From the IMG/VR virus record IMGVR_UViG_3300044642_000074, positions 1 through 64,000 of that record: 64,000 nt of DNA; one strand, 5' to 3'. Under the pieces are notes generated by a model, which was not told where the DNA came from, searched no databases, and saw only the letters and a program-made list of their open reading frames with translations. The translations under genes were made by a program, and so were the position numbers. This document shows, one piece after another, positions 160 through 8,942 of the stretch (the first letter of the stretch is position 1; each line of letters opens with the position of its first letter). Source of the stretch: a virus.

Positions 160-316
160 TGTAAGGTGACGAAACCGGCAGACGTGCCCTCTTGTCTCGG
201 GGGTGTGGAAGATCTGATAAAGACAGAATACAATCGGGGTGTCCTCGGTGGAGGTTGACCATCAATCCTGTTCTGTTCCTAAAGACCACGTAGAGGTTCG
301 ACTCCTCTCCTTACAG
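160..316 (+). tRNA. tRNA-Asp(GTC)-like gene with class-II-type D arm and 88-nt variable arm
   Basis: Acceptor TGTAAGG(160-166)/CCTTACA(309-315) plus G discriminator; D arm ACG-AAACCGGCAGA-CGT; anticodon stem CCCTC/GGGGG with loop TT-GTC-TC; T arm AGAGG-TTCGACT-CCTCT; no encoded CCA. Confidence 0.75.
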
Positions 317-329
317 CTTGATAACATAT

Positions 330-400
330 TGTGGGGTGGTGTAATGGTAGCACACTGGGCTCATAACCCAGAAATCTTAGTTCGACTCTAAGCCCCGCAA
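330..400 (+). tRNA. tRNA-Met(CAT), initiator-like
   Basis: Acceptor TGTGGGG/CCCCGCA; anticodon stem CTGGG-CTCATAA-CCCAG with three consecutive G-C pairs typical of initiator tRNA; T arm CTTAG-TTCGACT-CTAAG. Confidence 0.92.
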
Positions 401-417
401 CTATAAACTTATATTCT

Positions 418-630
418 ATGGAAGAAAGTATACTTTATGATTACGTGTTTCATTTTAACACGTTTACCAAAACTTGGGCAGCTATTCCTCGTGACCAGTA
501 CAACGCATACTGGAGTAATCAAAATGTTCCCGGTGTATTACGCAGTAAGTCAATTGATACACTCTTAGAGTTATTGCAAAAGACAGGTGGTGATGTAAAG
601 AAGATTGCAAAACTATTTCGTGAAAAGTAA
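418..630 (+). CDS. small hypothetical protein (70 aa)
   Basis: ATG after an A/T-rich leader, co-oriented, stop overlaps the terminase start region. Confidence 0.75.
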   Translation: MEESILYDYVFHFNTFTKTWAAIPRDQYNAYWSNQNVPGVLRSKSIDTLLELLQKTGGDVKKIAKLFREK

Positions 631-2824
631 CCACTATATAGAAATACCAACCTTTGATAAAGATCACTGGACAGTAACTACTTTTTATTCAAGAGAAGAG
701 TTCAGGGACTTTGTATTATCCTGTTTTAAAGAACCGGGAAGATATGAGTTTGATGAAACCAGTCGGATCTTTAACGCTGAAGCTAAAAAGTTTCAGAAAG
801 ACGGATATTACTGTGCTGCTCCTGTAAAGACTAAAGACTTTATTAACTACTGGGATGACCAGAAAATGAAGTGTAAGTCAGGCATTATTGTCAAAAACGG
901 ACTTAATGTATGGTATATCAGTCGGGACTACTACATGTGGCTAAACTTTCTTCCTATCTATGACAAAGAAGAAAAACGGTTTGACTTTGCTAAAGTAAGA
1001 GATGCCCAGTATCACATGGCTCTTTACGAGCAATTAGCTGAACTACACTACAGACATTCTGCTATCTTAAAGAAACGTCAGATAGCCTCATCATATTTTC
1101 ATGCAGCTAAGCTGATTAACATGTATTGGTTTGAAGATGGTGCGGTATTAAAGATAGGTGCCAGTCTTAAAGACTATATTTCAGAGAAAGGTACCTGGCG
1201 TATGCTTACTGAGTACAGAACTTTTTTAAACGAACATACTGCCTGGTACAGACCTAGTGATCCTGATAAAGTATTTTCCTGGCAGCAGCGTATTAAGGTA
1301 CGTATTAGCGGTCGTGATACCCATAAAGGAAACAAGAGTATCATTACTGGTACTTCATTTGAGAAAGATCCTACTAATGGTGTCGGTGGTCCCTGTACTT
1401 ATTTCTTTCACGAGGAAGCTGGTATTGCTCCTAAGATGCACCTGACTTATGAGTACATGCGACCTGCTATGCAGAGTGGTATGATAACTACCGGTATGTT
1501 TATAGCAGCAGGATCTGTTGGTGACCTTGATCAGTGTGAACCTTTGAAGTTAATGATATTGCAACCGGAAGCTAATGATATTTATGCTGTACCCTCTAAT
1601 CTCATAGATAAGAACGGCACTATCGGCACGACTGGTCTTTTTATACCAGAACAATGGAGCATGCCTCCATATATAGATGAGTTTGGTAACTCTAAAGTAG
1701 AAGAAGCTTTAGAAGCCATTGTAGAAGAACGTATTCGTTGGAAGCGTGACCTTACACCAGAACAGTACCAGCTTCGTATATCACAGAAGCCAACAAATAT
1801 AGAAGAAGCTTTTGCTACCAGAAAAGAATCTATTTTTCCTCCGCATCTTGTGTCTAAACAAATGCAGCGTATTCAGGATAAAGAATACCCAGTAGAATAT
1901 TTAGAACTATCCAGAAACGCAGAGGGAAAGATTATAGATAAACAATCTAGGAAGATTCCTATCATGGAATTTCCTATCTCTAAGAAGACTGAAGATAAAG
2001 AGGGGGTACTTTGTGTGTACGAAAGACCACAAAAGGATCCTGCTTTTGGAATGTATTATGCTTCTGTGGATCCAGTAGGAGAGGGTAAGACCACAACTTC
2101 TGAATCTCTTTGTGCCATATACGTGTACAAGAATCCTGTAGAAGTAATTAAAGACGAGGGTAACGGAAAGGTAACCAATACCATAGAACGTGATAGAATT
2201 GTAGCCAGCTGGTGCGGTAGGTTTGATGACCTAAACAAAACCCATGAACGCCTAGAGCTTATCATAGAGTGGTACAACGCCTGGACCGTGGTGGAAAACA
2301 ACGTGGCCCTGTTTATTCAGTACATGATCAGCCGCAAGAAGCAACGATACCTTGTACCAAAAGACATGATCCTGTTTTTAAAAGACCTGGGTGCCAACCG
2401 GAACGTGTTCCAAGAATACGGATGGAAGAACGTAGGGACCATCTTTAAGGGCAACCTGCTCTCTTACGGGATAGAGTTCCTCAAAGAAGAGCTGGATCAT
2501 GAAACCAAGGCAGATGGAGAGATTGTAAAGACCATCTACGGGGTAGAAAGAATTCCGGATGTCATGCTTTTAAAAGAGATGCAAGCTTACCAAGAGGGGG
2601 TCAACGTGGACCGTTTGGTATCTTTTTGTGCCTTAGTGGCCTTTGCAAAAGTACAGCAAGCTAATAGAGGTTTAGCTAAACGTGTAGAAGTTACGGATCA
2701 AAAGTTGGATAACTCCCAGAAATTTAGTAAATTAAATTGGGGACCTTTTAGACATATGGGTTCTTCCAGAGGGAGTTCTGCAGGTATGAGACCACCCAGA
2801 TCACCCTTTAAAAACCTAAAATAA
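605..2824 (+). CDS. terL: terminase large subunit (true start possibly GTG at 620)
   Basis: Walker A-like ILKKRQIASS, Walker B FFHEEAG, RNase H-like nuclease motifs ASVDP / VVENN / NVDRLV; lies just before the portal. Confidence 0.93.
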   Translation: MQNYFVKSNHYIEIPTFDKDHWTVTTFYSREEFRDFVLSCFKEPGRYEFDETSRIFNAEAKKFQKDGYYCAAPVKTKDFINYWDDQKMKCKSGIIVKNGLNVWYISRDYYMWLNFLPIYDKEEKRFDFAKVRDAQYHMALYEQLAELHYRHSAILKKRQIASSYFHAAKLINMYWFEDGAVLKIGASLKDYISEKGTWRMLTEYRTFLNEHTAWYRPSDPDKVFSWQQRIKVRISGRDTHKGNKSIITGTSFEKDPTNGVGGPCTYFFHEEAGIAPKMHLTYEYMRPAMQSGMITTGMFIAAGSVGDLDQCEPLKLMILQPEANDIYAVPSNLIDKNGTIGTTGLFIPEQWSMPPYIDEFGNSKVEEALEAIVEERIRWKRDLTPEQYQLRISQKPTNIEEAFATRKESIFPPHLVSKQMQRIQDKEYPVEYLELSRNAEGKIIDKQSRKIPIMEFPISKKTEDKEGVLCVYERPQKDPAFGMYYASVDPVGEGKTTTSESLCAIYVYKNPVEVIKDEGNGKVTNTIERDRIVASWCGRFDDLNKTHERLELIIEWYNAWTVVENNVALFIQYMISRKKQRYLVPKDMILFLKDLGANRNVFQEYGWKNVGTIFKGNLLSYGIEFLKEELDHETKADGEIVKTIYGVERIPDVMLLKEMQAYQEGVNVDRLVSFCALVAFAKVQQANRGLAKRVEVTDQKLDNSQKFSKLNWGPFRHMGSSRGSSAGMRPPRSPFKNLK

Positions 2825-3128: not shown

Positions 3129-5873
3129 ATGCAGATATATAACGCTCTAGACCTAAAGGCTGGTAAAAAGGCCGACTATAACAAGATGGGTACTCTAACC
3201 CAACCTATTCAGTTTCTTTCTGAGAAGGAAAAGGATGAGGAATGGAGAGCCTGGAACCTTGACTGGTTAGAGTGGCAGGGTATGAAGCAGGTTAGGCGTA
3301 ATGCTCGTAGGCTGATGAAGAACTACAAGCTTGCCAAAGGCATTATAGATAAGGCAGACTACATTGTAGAAGAAGACAACGAGATGGCGGATCTGATAGA
3401 TACTCTTACTAAAGAAGATCAGTCTGCTTTAGAGCTTAAGTTCTATCCTATTATTCCTAACGTAATTAACGTACTCGCAAACGAGTTTTCTAAGCGTAGC
3501 TCTCGTATTATGTTCAAGGCCGTAGATGATATTTCCTACAACGAAATGATGGAGGAAAAAAGATCTATGGTAGAAAATGTACTGCTTCAGGATGCTGAAC
3601 GCAGGGTCATGATGCAGATGATGAACATGGGTATAGAGCTAGACTCTGAAGAAATGCAAAAAGCCATTGCTCCTGAAAATTTGCAGAAGCTTCCGGAAAT
3701 AGAAGGCTTCTTCCGTAAAGACTACCGTTCTATGATTGAAGAGTGGGCTACCCACCAGATGAGTGTAGATGAGGAAAGGTTTAAGATGCAAGAACTAGAA
3801 GAGCGTGCTTTTCGTGATATGCTAATTACAGACCGAGAGTTCTGGCATTTTCGTATGATGGAAGATGATTATGAGGTAGAGCTTTGGAATCCGCTGCTTA
3901 CTTTCTATCATAAATCACCAGATGTCCGTTATATCAGCCAGGGTAACTGGGTGGGTAAAATGGATCTGATGAGTGTATCAGATGTGATTGACAAGTACGG
4001 ATGGATGATGACGCAGGATCAGTTAGAAGCTTTGGAAGCTATCTACCCTGTACGTTCAGCCGGCTATCCTATTGAAGGATACCAGAACGATGGTACATAT
4101 TACGATCCTACTCGTTCTCACGAGTGGAATACTCAAATGCCATCTTTGGCCTACCGCCAGTTTACTTCTGTGTATGACTCACAATTTGGTACGGGAGATA
4201 TTGTTGAATGGATCATGTCTGACTCAGAAGATACTATTGACTTTGGTAAAAGTCATATGCTCAGGGTTTCTTCAATCTACTGGAAGAGTCAGAGAAAAGT
4301 AGGACATCTTACCAAGATTACTGAAGAAGGTGAGATTATACAAGACATTGTAGACGAAACCTATAAGATAACAGACAAACCTGAGTACAACACTGTTATA
4401 TACAAACAAAAGTCCAAGGATAACTTAATCTTTGGTGAACATATTGACTGGATCTGGATCAACGAGACCTGGGGTGGTATCAAGATTGGACCTAACCGTC
4501 CTGCTTTCTGGGGTCAAAATAACCCTGGTGGTATCAATCCTATCTATTTAGGTTTGAATGGGGGTAAGCCTGGTCGGATTCCATTCCAGTTTAAAGGAGA
4601 TTCTACTCTTTATGGTTGCAAACTTCCTGTGGAAGGTTCTGTATTTGGTGATCGTAACACCCGCAGTATTTCACTGGTTGATCTCATGAAGCCATACCAG
4701 ATAGGTTATAACATTGTAAATAACCAAATAGCTGACATCCTTGTAGATGAGCTAGGTACGGTTATTCTATTGGACCAGAACTCTTTACCTCGTCACTCTT
4801 TGGGAGAAGACTGGGGTAAAAATAATCTGGCCAAAGCCTATGTGGCCATGAAGAACTTCCAGATGCTACCGCTGGATACAACTATTACAAATACAGAGAA
4901 TGCTCTGAATTTCCAGCACTACCAGGTGCTAAATCTTGAGCAGACCAACCGTTTGCTTTCTCGTATTAATCTTGCCCAGTATTTTAAGAACCAGGCCTTT
5001 GAGGTTATTGGTCTTAACCCACAACGCATGGGTCAGCAGATTGCTCAGCAGCAAACTGCTACTGGTATAGAACAGGCTATGAGTGCCAGCTATGCACAGA
5101 CTGAGCAGTATTTTATTCAGCACTCTGATAACCTGATGCCAAGAGTTCACCAAATGAGAACTGACTTGGCTCAATACTACCATTCTAAGAAACCTAGTGT
5201 AAGACTTACCTATATCACTTCTAAAGATGAAAAAGTAAACTTTGAGATGAATGGTACAGATCTTCTATTAAGAGATCTGAATATCTTCTGTACTACAAAG
5301 ACCAACTCTCGTGCCATTATGGAGCAGCTTAAACAGCTGGCTATTAACAACAACACAACTGGTGCATCTATCTATGACCTGGGTAATGTAATTAAGTCTG
5401 AGTCTATAGCTGAACTTACCGGTGTTCTTAAGTCTGCTGAAGAAAAATCTATGGCACAGAAGCAGTCTGAGATGCAACAGCAACAGCAAATGCAGCAGGA
5501 AATGCTGGCGGCCCAAGAAAAACAAAGGGCTATGGAACTGCAGGCACAATCTGATAGAGATGATAAGATGATCCAAAAAGATATTACGGTAGCTGAGATA
5601 CGTGCTGCTGGCTATGGAGCTATGCAGGATATCAATCAGAACCAGCAGTCAGATTTTCAAGATGCTCTTGAAGGAATACGTAATGAACAACGTTATCAAG
5701 ATCAGATGAACCTAAAGCGTGAGCAGACACTTACTCAGAAAGAACAAGGCAGTGCTAAGCTTCAGATTGAGCGTGAAAGGCTTCAGGCTCAGAAAGATAT
5801 AGCTGATAAACAACTCCAGATTGCCAGGGAAAACAAAAATAAGTACGACAAACCTGGTAAAAAGTCAAACTAA
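3129..5873 (+). CDS. portal protein (crAss-like)
   Basis: 914 aa after terL; FYPIIPNVINVL, SLVDLMKPYQIGYNIVNNQI motifs; Gln-rich coiled-coil C-terminus typical of podovirus/crAss portals. Confidence 0.9.
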   Translation: MQIYNALDLKAGKKADYNKMGTLTQPIQFLSEKEKDEEWRAWNLDWLEWQGMKQVRRNARRLMKNYKLAKGIIDKADYIVEEDNEMADLIDTLTKEDQSALELKFYPIIPNVINVLANEFSKRSSRIMFKAVDDISYNEMMEEKRSMVENVLLQDAERRVMMQMMNMGIELDSEEMQKAIAPENLQKLPEIEGFFRKDYRSMIEEWATHQMSVDEERFKMQELEERAFRDMLITDREFWHFRMMEDDYEVELWNPLLTFYHKSPDVRYISQGNWVGKMDLMSVSDVIDKYGWMMTQDQLEALEAIYPVRSAGYPIEGYQNDGTYYDPTRSHEWNTQMPSLAYRQFTSVYDSQFGTGDIVEWIMSDSEDTIDFGKSHMLRVSSIYWKSQRKVGHLTKITEEGEIIQDIVDETYKITDKPEYNTVIYKQKSKDNLIFGEHIDWIWINETWGGIKIGPNRPAFWGQNNPGGINPIYLGLNGGKPGRIPFQFKGDSTLYGCKLPVEGSVFGDRNTRSISLVDLMKPYQIGYNIVNNQIADILVDELGTVILLDQNSLPRHSLGEDWGKNNLAKAYVAMKNFQMLPLDTTITNTENALNFQHYQVLNLEQTNRLLSRINLAQYFKNQAFEVIGLNPQRMGQQIAQQQTATGIEQAMSASYAQTEQYFIQHSDNLMPRVHQMRTDLAQYYHSKKPSVRLTYITSKDEKVNFEMNGTDLLLRDLNIFCTTKTNSRAIMEQLKQLAINNNTTGASIYDLGNVIKSESIAELTGVLKSAEEKSMAQKQSEMQQQQQMQQEMLAAQEKQRAMELQAQSDRDDKMIQKDITVAEIRAAGYGAMQDINQNQQSDFQDALEGIRNEQRYQDQMNLKREQTLTQKEQGSAKLQIERERLQAQKDIADKQLQIARENKNKYDKPGKKSN

Positions 5874-7316: not shown

Positions 7317-8942
7317 ATGGCAACTCCAGTTTTGAACAATGGTATATTTCTACGAGATACCAGCTATCAAACTAGCTCACACGTAGATTCTTACCACCTT
7401 TCAAACCTCCTAAAGAGTGCGGAACCAACTGATCTTGGTCCCGTAGATCTATGGGCTATGGCTCAAAAGGTAGAAATGCCTTTGTACCAGATGTCCAGCT
7501 TTGGAGGAAAGAACGTTATCTCTGTAGATAACGCACGTGGTGAGTACAAATGGCAGATCCCTGTAGCTCAGGATCTACCCTATATCACAGAAGATATAGA
7601 ATCCGCTAATGCCACTAAAGGTATTGACGGACAGAGCTTCAAGATCAAAGTAAACAAGCGTTCTTTTGGTCATGGTGATATCATCACTTATGACAAGTAC
7701 AACGGTGTTGAAATGTACATCACTGCAGACGATATTATCCCTGCTGGTGACGGTTTCATCTACACAGTACAGCTTGTAAACAATGACAATGCTAAGTTTT
7801 TAGACAACAAGTATTTAAAAGTTGGAACCAAAGTATTCCGTAAGGGTTCTGCCCGTGGTGAATATGGTGAGCGTTTCTCAGATTTGGGTAACGTATCAGC
7901 TGGTTTCCGCGAATTCTACAACTATGTAGGTGGTGCAGAAGCTCACGTACACTACAGCATCAGCTCTCGTGCAGACTTGATGATGAAAGGTGGTATGAAA
8001 GCTGACGGTACTGTACCTGTAGTTGAGCTTTGGAGAAACTTTGACAGTGAGGCTCTTAAAGATCCTTCTGTTACTTCTCTTGAAAGCATGGCTTCTAAAA
8101 TGGGTAAAGATTATGTAAAGAAAGCTTACCAGTCTGGTCAGTTGACTCGTACATTCTTGACTACTCTTGAAGCTGCTCATTTGACTAAGATTGCTAACGA
8201 CATGGAAACTTACCTCATGTGGGGACAAGGTGGACGTGTTAAGCAAGACGGTCCAGATGATATCCGTTTGTCAGTAGGTCTTTGGAAGCAGTTGGATAAC
8301 TCTTACAAGCGTATCTACAACAAAGGTTCTTTCAATCTTGACTTGTTTAAGTCTGAAATCTTCAACTTCTTCAATGGTAAGGTTGAGTTCCAAGGTCCAG
8401 ATCCTAAGCGTCAGCTTGTTGTACAAACTGGTCTTGGTGGTATGAAATTGGTTAACGAAGCAATTAAGAAGGAAGCTATCAACAGCGGTCTTGTTATCAA
8501 TGCTTCTGAAATCGGTGCTATCACTGGTAAAGGTATGGATCTAAACTTCGGTTTTGCATACACTCAGTACGTTATTCCGTTCTTGGCTAACGTTAAGTTT
8601 GTATTGAACCCTGCGTTTGATAACATCCACACCAATGATATTGAGAACCCAATCATTGATGGTTTCCCATTATCTTCTTACAACTTCATCATATTTGATA
8701 TCACAGATAACGTTAACGACAACATCTTCTTGTTGAAGTTAAGCTGGGATAATCAATTGAAGTGGTTCTATCAGAATGGTACAATGGATTACATGGGTCG
8801 TACACAAGGCTTCCAGTCTTCTGGAAACTTCAACGGTTACCGTGTGTTCATGAGCCAGACTATGCCAGCGATCTGGGTGAAAGATCCTACCAAGGTTCTT
8901 AAGATCGTGATGAGAAACCCTGTTACAGGCGGCTCATTCTAA
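7317..8942 (+). CDS. major capsid protein (crAss-like, HK97 fold)
   Basis: 541 aa, strongly biased high-expression codon usage, C-terminal PAIWVKDPTKVLKI motif, synteny portal-scaffold-MCP. Confidence 0.9.
   Translation: MATPVLNNGIFLRDTSYQTSSHVDSYHLSNLLKSAEPTDLGPVDLWAMAQKVEMPLYQMSSFGGKNVISVDNARGEYKWQIPVAQDLPYITEDIESANATKGIDGQSFKIKVNKRSFGHGDIITYDKYNGVEMYITADDIIPAGDGFIYTVQLVNNDNAKFLDNKYLKVGTKVFRKGSARGEYGERFSDLGNVSAGFREFYNYVGGAEAHVHYSISSRADLMMKGGMKADGTVPVVELWRNFDSEALKDPSVTSLESMASKMGKDYVKKAYQSGQLTRTFLTTLEAAHLTKIANDMETYLMWGQGGRVKQDGPDDIRLSVGLWKQLDNSYKRIYNKGSFNLDLFKSEIFNFFNGKVEFQGPDPKRQLVVQTGLGGMKLVNEAIKKEAINSGLVINASEIGAITGKGMDLNFGFAYTQYVIPFLANVKFVLNPAFDNIHTNDIENPIIDGFPLSSYNFIIFDITDNVNDNIFLLKLSWDNQLKWFYQNGTMDYMGRTQGFQSSGNFNGYRVFMSQTMPAIWVKDPTKVLKIVMRNPVTGGSF

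Follow-up and report, generated by a model that had tools for sequence, protein, structure and literature searches.

In class II tRNAs an extra arm emerges after position 44, on a body that in tRNA-Leu (RF00005), for example, has a 7/5 branch (acceptor stem and T-stem), a 3-bp D-stem, a long D-loop with GG and a canonical T-loop. Here we describe a 157-nt, tRNA-shaped RNA that has all of these traits and a giant variable arm. It lies at positions 160 to 316 of a stretch of 64,000 nucleotides (the window), the leftmost part of the 114.8-kb linear record of a crAss-like lake phage (IMG/VR record IMGVR_UViG_3300044642_000074, estimated at 88% of the genome). Unlike tRNA-Leu, the RNA has G73 instead of A73, U1-A72 as its first pair and, in a GUC-type loop, a pyrimidine at position 37. 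Unlike class II tRNAs at large, it belongs to a family whose arms measure 38-114 nt (15-102 nt in phages), with one helix bulged, an internal loop that is conserved and, in many members, a three-way junction, and it scores under the RF00005 gathering score. With GUC, G73 and U1-A72 in the window, an identity as class II tRNA-Leu, tRNA-Ser or tRNA-Tyr was rejected; G73 is an antideterminant against LeuRS and TyrRS (PMC9976931).

Other described RNAs share different parts of its design. Bacterial tRNA-Asp(GUC) has the same G73, G34-U35-C36, C38 and G2-C71, from which the RNA departs by its class II body, U1-A72, U37, variable positions 33 and 34, and its coexistence with a normal tRNA-Asp. In Thermus and Deinococcus, tRNA-Asn is served by a non-discriminating AspRS together with the amidotransferase GatCAB; the RNA resembles this tRNA in U1-A72, G73, G34 and U35, and GatCAB is retained by its bacterial hosts even though nearly all of them possess AsnRS, and many GlnRS as well. 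It differs from tRNA-Asn in its giant arm, in being predicted not to decode, and in having C36 rather than U36, so that any AspRS could charge it. Allo-tRNAs and the nev-tRNAs of nematodes likewise join a class II shape to the anticodon of a class I amino acid, and GUC is frequent among allo-tRNAs (PMC5389517). However, the branch of allo-tRNAs is 8/4 or 9/3 (PMC5389517), their D-stem is long and their arm ordinary, whereas our RNA has a 7/5 branch and an arm several times longer. An eighth acceptor pair would bring U167 opposite U308, a mismatch, and an allo-tRNA identity was rejected on the branch. In the bacterial Y-RNA-like YrlA, the termini reportedly form a Ro-binding stem and the internal tRNA-like part lacks an anticodon arm. 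Both YrlA and our RNA are non-coding RNAs with a tRNA-like module (PMC4201824), but the termini of the latter form a plain acceptor stem and its extra domain is internal. Identities as tmRNA or YrlA were set aside, as ARAGORN reported no tmRNA, Rfam gave no match and the terminal stem is not of the Ro-binding kind. The giant-armed family is absent from Rfam 15, which holds no family for it, and our search of the literature found no description of it in print.

The giant-armed RNA is a real RNA gene of a conserved family. The single sequence was uninformative on this point. ARAGORN made no tRNA or tmRNA call at 160-316, and Rfam 15 gave no match at E values up to 10 on positions 100-420, nor at gathering score over the whole window. 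RF00005 failed to match 160-316 even at E up to 10, and the bacterial members L212, L230 and L264 gave no match either. The energy of the single-sequence fold was no better than that of shuffled sequences (z-score of the minimum free energy -0.43), and the structure derived by comparison has -41.6 kcal/mol against -48.3 kcal/mol for the minimum free energy. With no tool call and an uninformative fold energy, the window alone offers only a pattern seen by eye, and it is the comparison of relatives that settles the reality of the RNA. That pattern had been picked out in an earlier inspection of the window (the sequence-only reading), which held that the RNA was neither a decayed tRNA nor a random recent insertion and proposed a covariance model and a homologue search. 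Both views of the element proved right: homologues with compensatory changes in the stems of the insert were found, and they form a conserved family. The lack of an Rfam 15 match, in phage and bacterial relatives alike, also ruled out a ribozyme, riboswitch, tmRNA or Y RNA.

Phage relatives came from 80 loci collected via the terminase, together with loci from a pattern scan of IMG/VR. The same gene stands just upstream of the terminase in many of the 80 loci, often followed by the same tRNA-Met. The 72 distinct phage sequences have arms clustered at 21-41 and 72-95 nt, and ARAGORN calls the short-armed copies tRNA-Asp(GUC) of 91-96 nt. For bacteria, an anticodon-free pattern was run against one genome per prokaryote species and returned at least 120 stretches. 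These comprise at least 116 distinct sequences; figures given below out of 116 for bacteria, or out of 188 for bacteria and phages jointly, are among the matches listed. All of the bacterial matches listed are from Bacteroidota, with Pedobacter, Cyclobacterium, Marivirga, Fulvivirga, Hymenobacter, Aquirufa and Ekhidna as cultured carriers.

Two alignments of these sequences carry the structural evidence. In A2, which holds 51 bacterial and phage sequences and covers the four tRNA stems and the arm helices P1 and P1b, 97.5% of the cells are paired and both sides change in 19 of 27 pairs. In A1, made of 36 long-armed phage copies and covering the helices of A2 plus the arm helix P2, 94.2% of the cells are paired and both sides change in 23 of 36 pairs. 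Neither count was reached in any of 500 shuffles. When the 3' partner was slid by 1-3 columns, only 43-61% of the cells remained paired. Compensatory changes thus occur in seven helices, namely the four tRNA stems, P1, P1b and P2. For A2, the acceptor stem is 99.7% paired with three covarying pairs, the D-stem 100% paired with two of three, and the T-stem 99.6% paired with four of five; in the anticodon stem four of five pairs covary. Within the arm, P1 is 99% paired (3/4 pairs covarying) and P1b 87-92% paired over the two alignments (3/3). In P2, six of nine pairs covary on A1 and the inner six are mostly paired. A covariance model built from A2 (R1) matches the window with 112.4 bits and an E value of 7e-31 over positions 1-122 of 122, a circular result, as the window is in the training set. 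In 150 Cytophagales genomes, family members from outside the R1 seed scored 90-123 bits (E <= 1e-21), and ordinary class II tRNAs matched weakly, with best E values of 1e-10 to 1e-17.

The anatomy of the RNA in the window is given in Table 1. Its L-shaped, tRNA-like cloverleaf has a 7-bp acceptor stem, a 5-bp T-stem, a T-loop of the form UUCRANY and GG in the D-loop. The sequence-only reading had placed the variable region at 204-291 and listed the helices in it, all of which the sequence bears out. It had also described the D-arm as Leu/Ser-like, that is, of class II; indeed, the D-arm is only two bases away from that of a phage tRNA-Leu(UAG) in relatives. With P1, the bulge, P1b and the GAUAAA/CUAA loop, the window RNA fits the definition of the family. 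Since it keeps every family feature, it is a full member and no relic.

Table 1. Coordinates of the giant-armed RNA, its parts and neighbouring genes in the window
Feature	Position	Strand	Basis or remark
Whole RNA gene, tRNA-shaped with giant variable arm, 157 nt	160..316	+	sequence; homologues; R1 match
Acceptor stem UGUAAGG/CCUUACA, 7 bp	160-166/309-315	+	sequence
Discriminator, position 73 (G)	316	+	
D-arm, 3-bp stem ACG/CGU, 11-nt loop with GG	169-171/183-185	+	sequence
Anticodon-like stem CCCUC/GGGGG, 5 bp	187-191/199-203	+	
Anticodon-like loop UUGUCUC	192-198	+	GUC at 194-196, U37, C38
Variable-arm domain, 88 nt	204..291	+	alignments A1, A2
P1, GUGG/CCAC	205-208/286-289	+	
Bulge AAGA, 4 nt, 5' strand only	209-212	+	4-5 nt in the family
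P1b, UCU/AGA, 3 bp	213-215/283-285	+	not seen in the sequence-only reading
Internal loop GAUAAAG facing UCCUAA	216..222 / 277-282	+	alignments A1, A2
P2, ACAGAAUA/UGUUCUGU	223-230/269-276	+	encloses the three-way junction
P3a hairpin AUCGGGG-UGU-CCUCGGU	233..249	+	variable accessory, 5' of the conserved motif
P3 hairpin GGUUG-ACCAU-CAAUC	253..267	+	the family's conserved GGGUUGACCAC motif
T-arm, stem AGAGG/CCUCU, canonical loop UUCGACU	292-296/304-308	+	
Initiator-like tRNA-Met(CAT)	330-401	+	ARAGORN; Rfam 65.6 bits
Large terminase gene	605-2824		
Portal protein gene	3129-5873		
Major head protein gene	7317-8942		

Over the family the arm spans 15-114 nt. P1 has 4-5 bp, and the strands of the internal loop follow the consensus 5' GA(U)AAA facing 3' CUAA in both alignments; this loop may resemble the UAA/GAN internal-loop motif. 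Beyond it the arms diverge. In members of the Pedobacter type a plain cap, often a GNRA tetraloop, closes P2, and the GGGUUGACCAC motif is absent from these minimal arms. Most phage copies, and those of Cytophagaceae, Aquirufa and Chitinophagaceae, have at the end of P2 a three-way junction, like that of the window, which holds GGGUUGACCAC. This block is near-invariant in A1 and fits a hairpin GGUUG/CAAU(C), with the loop ACCAC in most members and ACCAU in the window; the variants GAUUG/UAAUC and GGUUG/CAAC preserve the pairing. Hairpins of other sequence occupy the P3a position in phage loci L123, L030, L129 and L145 and bacterial loci L245, L260 and L300. Even close phage relatives differ in their arm modules, and in some phage lineages (L038, L064, L031) the arm has shrunk to a stub that retains the loop strands. 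No bacterial copy listed has an arm below 38 nt. For phages, the RNA body and the loop seem to matter more than the distal arm. In L239 (6989-7298), L292 (2546-2898) and L207 (2588-7120), tandem or nearby copies share the tRNA body and differ in the distal arm, with arms of 56 versus 69 nt, an extra hairpin in the P1 bulge or different apical loops; arm tips seem to diversify between paralogues.

The sequence-only reading had also allowed for a removable insert, and this part of it found no support. There is no splice-like motif and no Rfam ribozyme or intron match, and arm lengths form a continuum from 15 to 114 nt. ARAGORN, with introns allowed, yields a forced and poor tRNA-Arg(CCU) whose intron measures 85 nt and whose anticodon stem is mismatched. 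We rejected the intron because the short-armed relatives align as an expansion of the variable arm. K-turn and hammerhead readings of CUGAUAAAG were likewise rejected; on inspection, G-A pairs in tandem and in register were missing, and no Rfam family matched.

The nucleotides that the family keeps are those by which tRNA-Asp is recognized. The Asp identity set consists of G73, G34, U35, C36 and C38 (PMC9976931). All five are present in the window, and the sequence-only reading was correct in listing G73, GUC and C38 as kept. Among the bacterial copies listed, U35, C36 and C38 occur in 116/116, although the search pattern left the loop free, and G34 occurs in 102 (A in nine, C in five); G73 is found in every copy, phage and bacterial alike (116/116 of the bacterial copies listed). 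The window RNA lacks, however, the class I loop and the G1-C72 pair of tRNA-Asp. G1-C72 is strictly conserved in bacterial tRNA-Asp and prevents amidation by the amidotransferase, which U1-A72 confers (PMC9976931). The RNA thus has the pair that permits GatCAB to act and is free of the G1-C72 antideterminant; a second antideterminant, U20a, would lie in the D-loop, where the numbering of a class II arm is ambiguous. U1-A72, G2-C71, U3-A70 and A4-U69 are found in every copy recovered, with UGUA at the 5' end fixed by the search patterns; under a looser, anticodon-free pattern every member with a GUC loop again began with UGUA and no other start appeared.

The features of the loop that serve decoding are treated quite differently. 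Although the window has U33, it has U37 where a purine is expected, and the pyrimidine at this position that the sequence-only reading had remarked on (U or C) recurs in 187 of the 188 distinct sequences listed. Position 33 is other than U in 26 of the 188, of which 10 are bacterial and 16 phage. Among phage copies U33 is lost in 9 of 13 with an arm of at most 26 nt, as against 7 of 59 with longer arms (kinship ignored), and it looks as if loss of the arm were offset by disabling of the U-turn. The short-armed copies without U33 usually have a purine there (e.g., L002 2883-2977, L009 3490-3584, L107 3825-3908). Variable positions 33 and 34 and a pyrimidine at 37 are not the marks of a decoding tRNA. 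Nor is the RNA the sole tRNA-Asp of its carriers: all five RNA-bearing genomes checked have a canonical class I tRNA-Asp, and phage loci L130, L187 and L192 carry a tRNA-Asp of 75-78 nt as well as the giant-armed RNA.

For the distribution in bacteria, we searched 150 Cytophagales genomes and 151 genomes across the phylum. R1 finds the RNA in about 105 of the 150 (~70%), with tandem hits in some (about six in G221 and about seven in G300); the Cytophagales genomes without it are mostly small, 0.9-1.7 Mb. In the phylum-wide sample the strict pattern found it in eight genomes, and R1 found six more beside orthologues of the regulator described below. It occurs also in Pedobacter and Chitinophagaceae. 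The RNA is therefore no phage invention; phages picked it up from Bacteroidota, where its genes are chromosomal, widespread and often present in several copies. In 79 of 109 loci a divergent gene for a ~155-residue protein of the Lrp/AsnC family lies within 1 kb upstream (in 11 more of the 109 the upstream side is off the locus; tandem sets were counted from their first RNA). The best NCBIfam model for this regulator is the AsnC equivalog, matched over its full length with 156-170 bits, and models of the Lrp type reach at most 90 bits. Across the phylum-wide sample the RNA adjoins 11 of the 17 closest orthologues of the regulator. The genes on its other flank vary. Neither the bacterial family, nor its regulator, nor the constancy of U1-A72 had been foreseen in the sequence-only reading.

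Taken together, three features point to asparagine: the nucleotides for AspRS are kept, the first pair is one that licenses amidation, and the regulator next to the RNA has AsnC as its nearest counterpart. In E. coli, asnC and asnA are arranged divergently, and AsnC responds to asparagine. We suggest that the RNA may be a charged, non-decoding carrier linked to asparagine, with AspRS attaching aspartate and GatCAB amidating it, a reading that is coherent but weakly supported and to which we give a probability of roughly 0.35. The invariance of G73, U35, C36 and C38, with G34 usual, suggests that the host AspRS would charge the RNA with aspartate; the replacement of the G1-C72 of bacterial tRNA-Asp by U1-A72 suggests that GatCAB would turn this aspartate into asparagine on the RNA. 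An RNA with a GUC loop that carries asparagine would have to be kept from EF-Tu and the ribosome, and it could be barred from both by its bulky arm, by U1-A72 and by the state of its loop, with a pyrimidine at 37 and variation at 33 and 34. The RNA would then be a dedicated platform, or a gauge, for the supply of asparagine, switched by the AsnC-like protein in the cell, and a phage would express it to push the asparagine pathway of its host during infection. Slightly more doubtful is the fuller proposal that Cytophagales, Sphingobacteriales and Chitinophagales keep a non-decoding RNA on which AspRS and GatCAB make or report asparagine under AsnC control, with the arm and the crippled loop as safeguards, and that phages commandeer this pathway.

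Of the 150 Cytophagales genomes, GatB is found in 137, AsnRS in 148 and GlnRS in 60. In the 60 with GlnRS, where GatCAB has no compulsory role in translation, GatB occurs in 44 of 45 RNA-positive genomes versus 4 of 15 RNA-negative ones (Fisher p = 4e-8), and two of these four have an atypical fused GatB. This form consists of a GatB N-terminal domain in frames of ~1110-1126 amino acids (720 in G255) and was seen in G253, G255, G287 and G302 (E ~1e-91 to 1e-94); it is a second copy in G228 and G235 and the sole GatB hit in the RNA-less G253 and G255. All 14 RNA-positive genomes of the phylum-wide sample also have GatB.

A number of observations weigh against the link to asparagine. The last count is uninformative, since GatB occurs in 126 of the 151 genomes (83%) regardless of the RNA. 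On the GlnRS tree, the association in Cytophagales comes down to three co-losses of RNA and GatB, two losses of the RNA only (G209, G217) and one absence of GatB only (G238); with five independent pairs it is non-significant (sign test p >= 0.25). The cells show no obvious need of the route. Genes of the AsnB type are present in 135 of the 150 Cytophagales genomes, so in most of them the RNA is no substitute for a missing synthetase, and asnA, found in 12 genomes of which seven are RNA-positive and five RNA-negative, shows no complementarity to it. The surroundings of asnA, covered over 1.5 kb in ten loci of Cytophagales, contained no AsnC-like gene. The regulator itself stays under the AsnC model cut-off of 227 bits, and the six orthologues without an adjacent RNA have unrelated neighbours (peptidases, transketolase and others). 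G34, a strong determinant for Asp, is A or C in 14 of the bacterial copies listed, and the RNA has another pair in place of G1-C72, which helps E. coli AspRS to position the acceptor end. Some phage copies have a plain hairpin of 15-26 nt as their arm, which makes the big domain dispensable at least for phages. Finally, asparagine borne on an RNA would need to be released to be useful, and we know of no releasing step.

The same observations can be read in other ways. The sequence-only reading had named, as candidate functions, a decoy for anticodon nucleases or AspRS and an aptamer or guide domain. The RNA might be a binding decoy, or sponge, for a protein that recognizes tRNA-Asp, such as AspRS, a nuclease or toxin for GUN anticodons, or a modification enzyme, with the arm as a second docking site, and phages would use it to blunt tRNA-directed defence. 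A decoy of this sort would be expected to keep the loop core U35-C36-U37-C38 and the acceptor end while losing its decoding features, as is the case here. The high gene dosage (tandem copies in G221 and G300) would suit a stoichiometric binder, the apical loops conserved within clades (ACCAC, GNRA, UGAUCAG) resemble docking sites, and the RNA is carried by phages of several kinds. Colicin E5-type anticodon nucleases need G34, however, and G34 varies in bacteria; nucleases and toxins are absent from the conserved neighbours of the RNA, and neither the pairing with the AsnC-like regulator nor the invariance of U1-A72 would be explained. We consider a decoy unlikely. We are still less inclined to see a working tRNA-Asp isoacceptor that reads GAY codons, by which a phage would top up or replace the tRNA-Asp of its host and whose arm is tolerated or regulatory (for instance, in resisting tRNA-targeting defences). 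Such a function would agree with the full Asp identity set, standard T-arm and D-loop of the window RNA and with the ARAGORN calls of short-armed phage copies as tRNA-Asp; tRNAs with altered anticodon loops are common in phages, and engineered tRNAs with aptamers in the V-region retain some activity (PMC7590224). It is at odds with the near-universal pyrimidine 37, with the change of U33 to a purine or C in the 26 copies counted above, and with the AUC and CUC anticodons of bacterial copies, of which CUC would read Glu codons. The strictly conserved G1-C72 of bacterial tRNA-Asp is also replaced by U1-A72, and the hosts checked and three phages already have a normal tRNA-Asp.

A missense tRNA that accepts serine, akin to allo- or nev-tRNAs, is an improbable alternative. 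SerRS would read the long arm and G73, and serine would be placed at Asp codons or would mark a Ser-charged regulatory RNA. A long V-arm with G73 is a serine signature, and the change of A73 to G73 turns tRNA-Leu bodies into Ser acceptors (PMC9976931); GUC is among the commonest allo-tRNA anticodons (PMC5389517), and G2-C71 is conserved. Yet most bacterial tRNA-Ser have an absolutely conserved G1-C72 (PMC9976931) where the RNA has U1-A72, and the branch is 7/5, neither 8/4 nor 9/3. A 4-5 nt bulge follows the first 4-5 bp of the arm, and in allo-tRNAs a single bulge in the V-stem blocked SerRS (PMC7590224). U35, C36 and C38 are invariant though SerRS ignores anticodons. Lastly, the gene could be a decaying pseudogene, or a tRNA gene into which an element has inserted, and the insert functionless. 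This origin would account for the wide range of arm lengths, for hairpin modules gained and lost between close relatives and for inner hairpins that are perfect palindromes in some copies. This is scarcely credible for a gene in ~70% of the sampled Cytophagales, whose arm helices covary, whose GAUAAA/CUAA strands and GGGUUGACCAC are conserved across orders and from phages to bacteria, and whose bacterial copies listed never fall below 38 nt of arm.

If our account of the family is true, an abundant RNA derived from tRNA, neither catalogued nor called by annotation pipelines, is made in much of a major bacterial phylum and by many of its phages. It would add a natural example to the few tRNAs diverted from decoding and would be a natural counterpart of engineered tRNAs with an aptamer in the variable arm. 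If the link to asparagine is true as well, the RNA would be the first RNA scaffold dedicated to tRNA-dependent synthesis of an amino acid, could help to explain why GatCAB is retained despite AsnRS and often GlnRS, and would represent a new kind of phage auxiliary metabolic gene, one made of RNA. tRNA finders need a wider arm limit to detect the family, which merits an Rfam entry.

In the phage, crAss-like genes lie directly downstream of the RNA gene. The tRNA-Met at 330-401, which has three G-C pairs at the foot of the anticodon stem like an initiator, has its nearest named phage matches in crAss-like phages (IAS virus, PhiCrAssBcn). It and the giant-armed RNA are the only two tRNA-type genes in the 114.8-kb record, and the pair recurs in relatives L002, L006, L009 and L010. 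The tRNA-Met of the window has U1-A72, and those of L006 (599-672) and L010 (3598-3669) have the C1xA72 mismatch of bacterial initiators. A search for nucleotide similarity to phages found nothing near, and a distant search matched only this neighbouring tRNA-Met. The phage record has no GatB, no Asn synthase domain and no AsnC-like regulator of its own.

The surroundings of the gene in relatives gave some minor observations. The genes upstream of it (GNAT, HU-like, exonuclease, ferredoxin-like and an unknown protein of 170 amino acids) provided no functional lead. The GNAT acetyltransferase gene lies ~3 kb upstream in the close relative L010 (55-486); some toxins of the GNAT kind act by acetylating charged tRNAs. 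Two other conserved non-coding stretches, not found in the window, separate the RNA gene from the gene that follows in relatives (L003 337-395, L019 3087-3150; L030 3492-3615, L038 3578-3670); both have clear inverted repeats and no Rfam match. In L003 and L005 the stop codon of the upstream gene directly abuts the start of the RNA (TGATCAATAA). In the window, AAGTGTAAA occurs twice at 127-159, just 5' of the RNA gene, and echoes the first bases of the RNA, UGUAAGGUG; these repeats might have arisen by partial duplication, or might act as a phage promoter or as a signal for processing.

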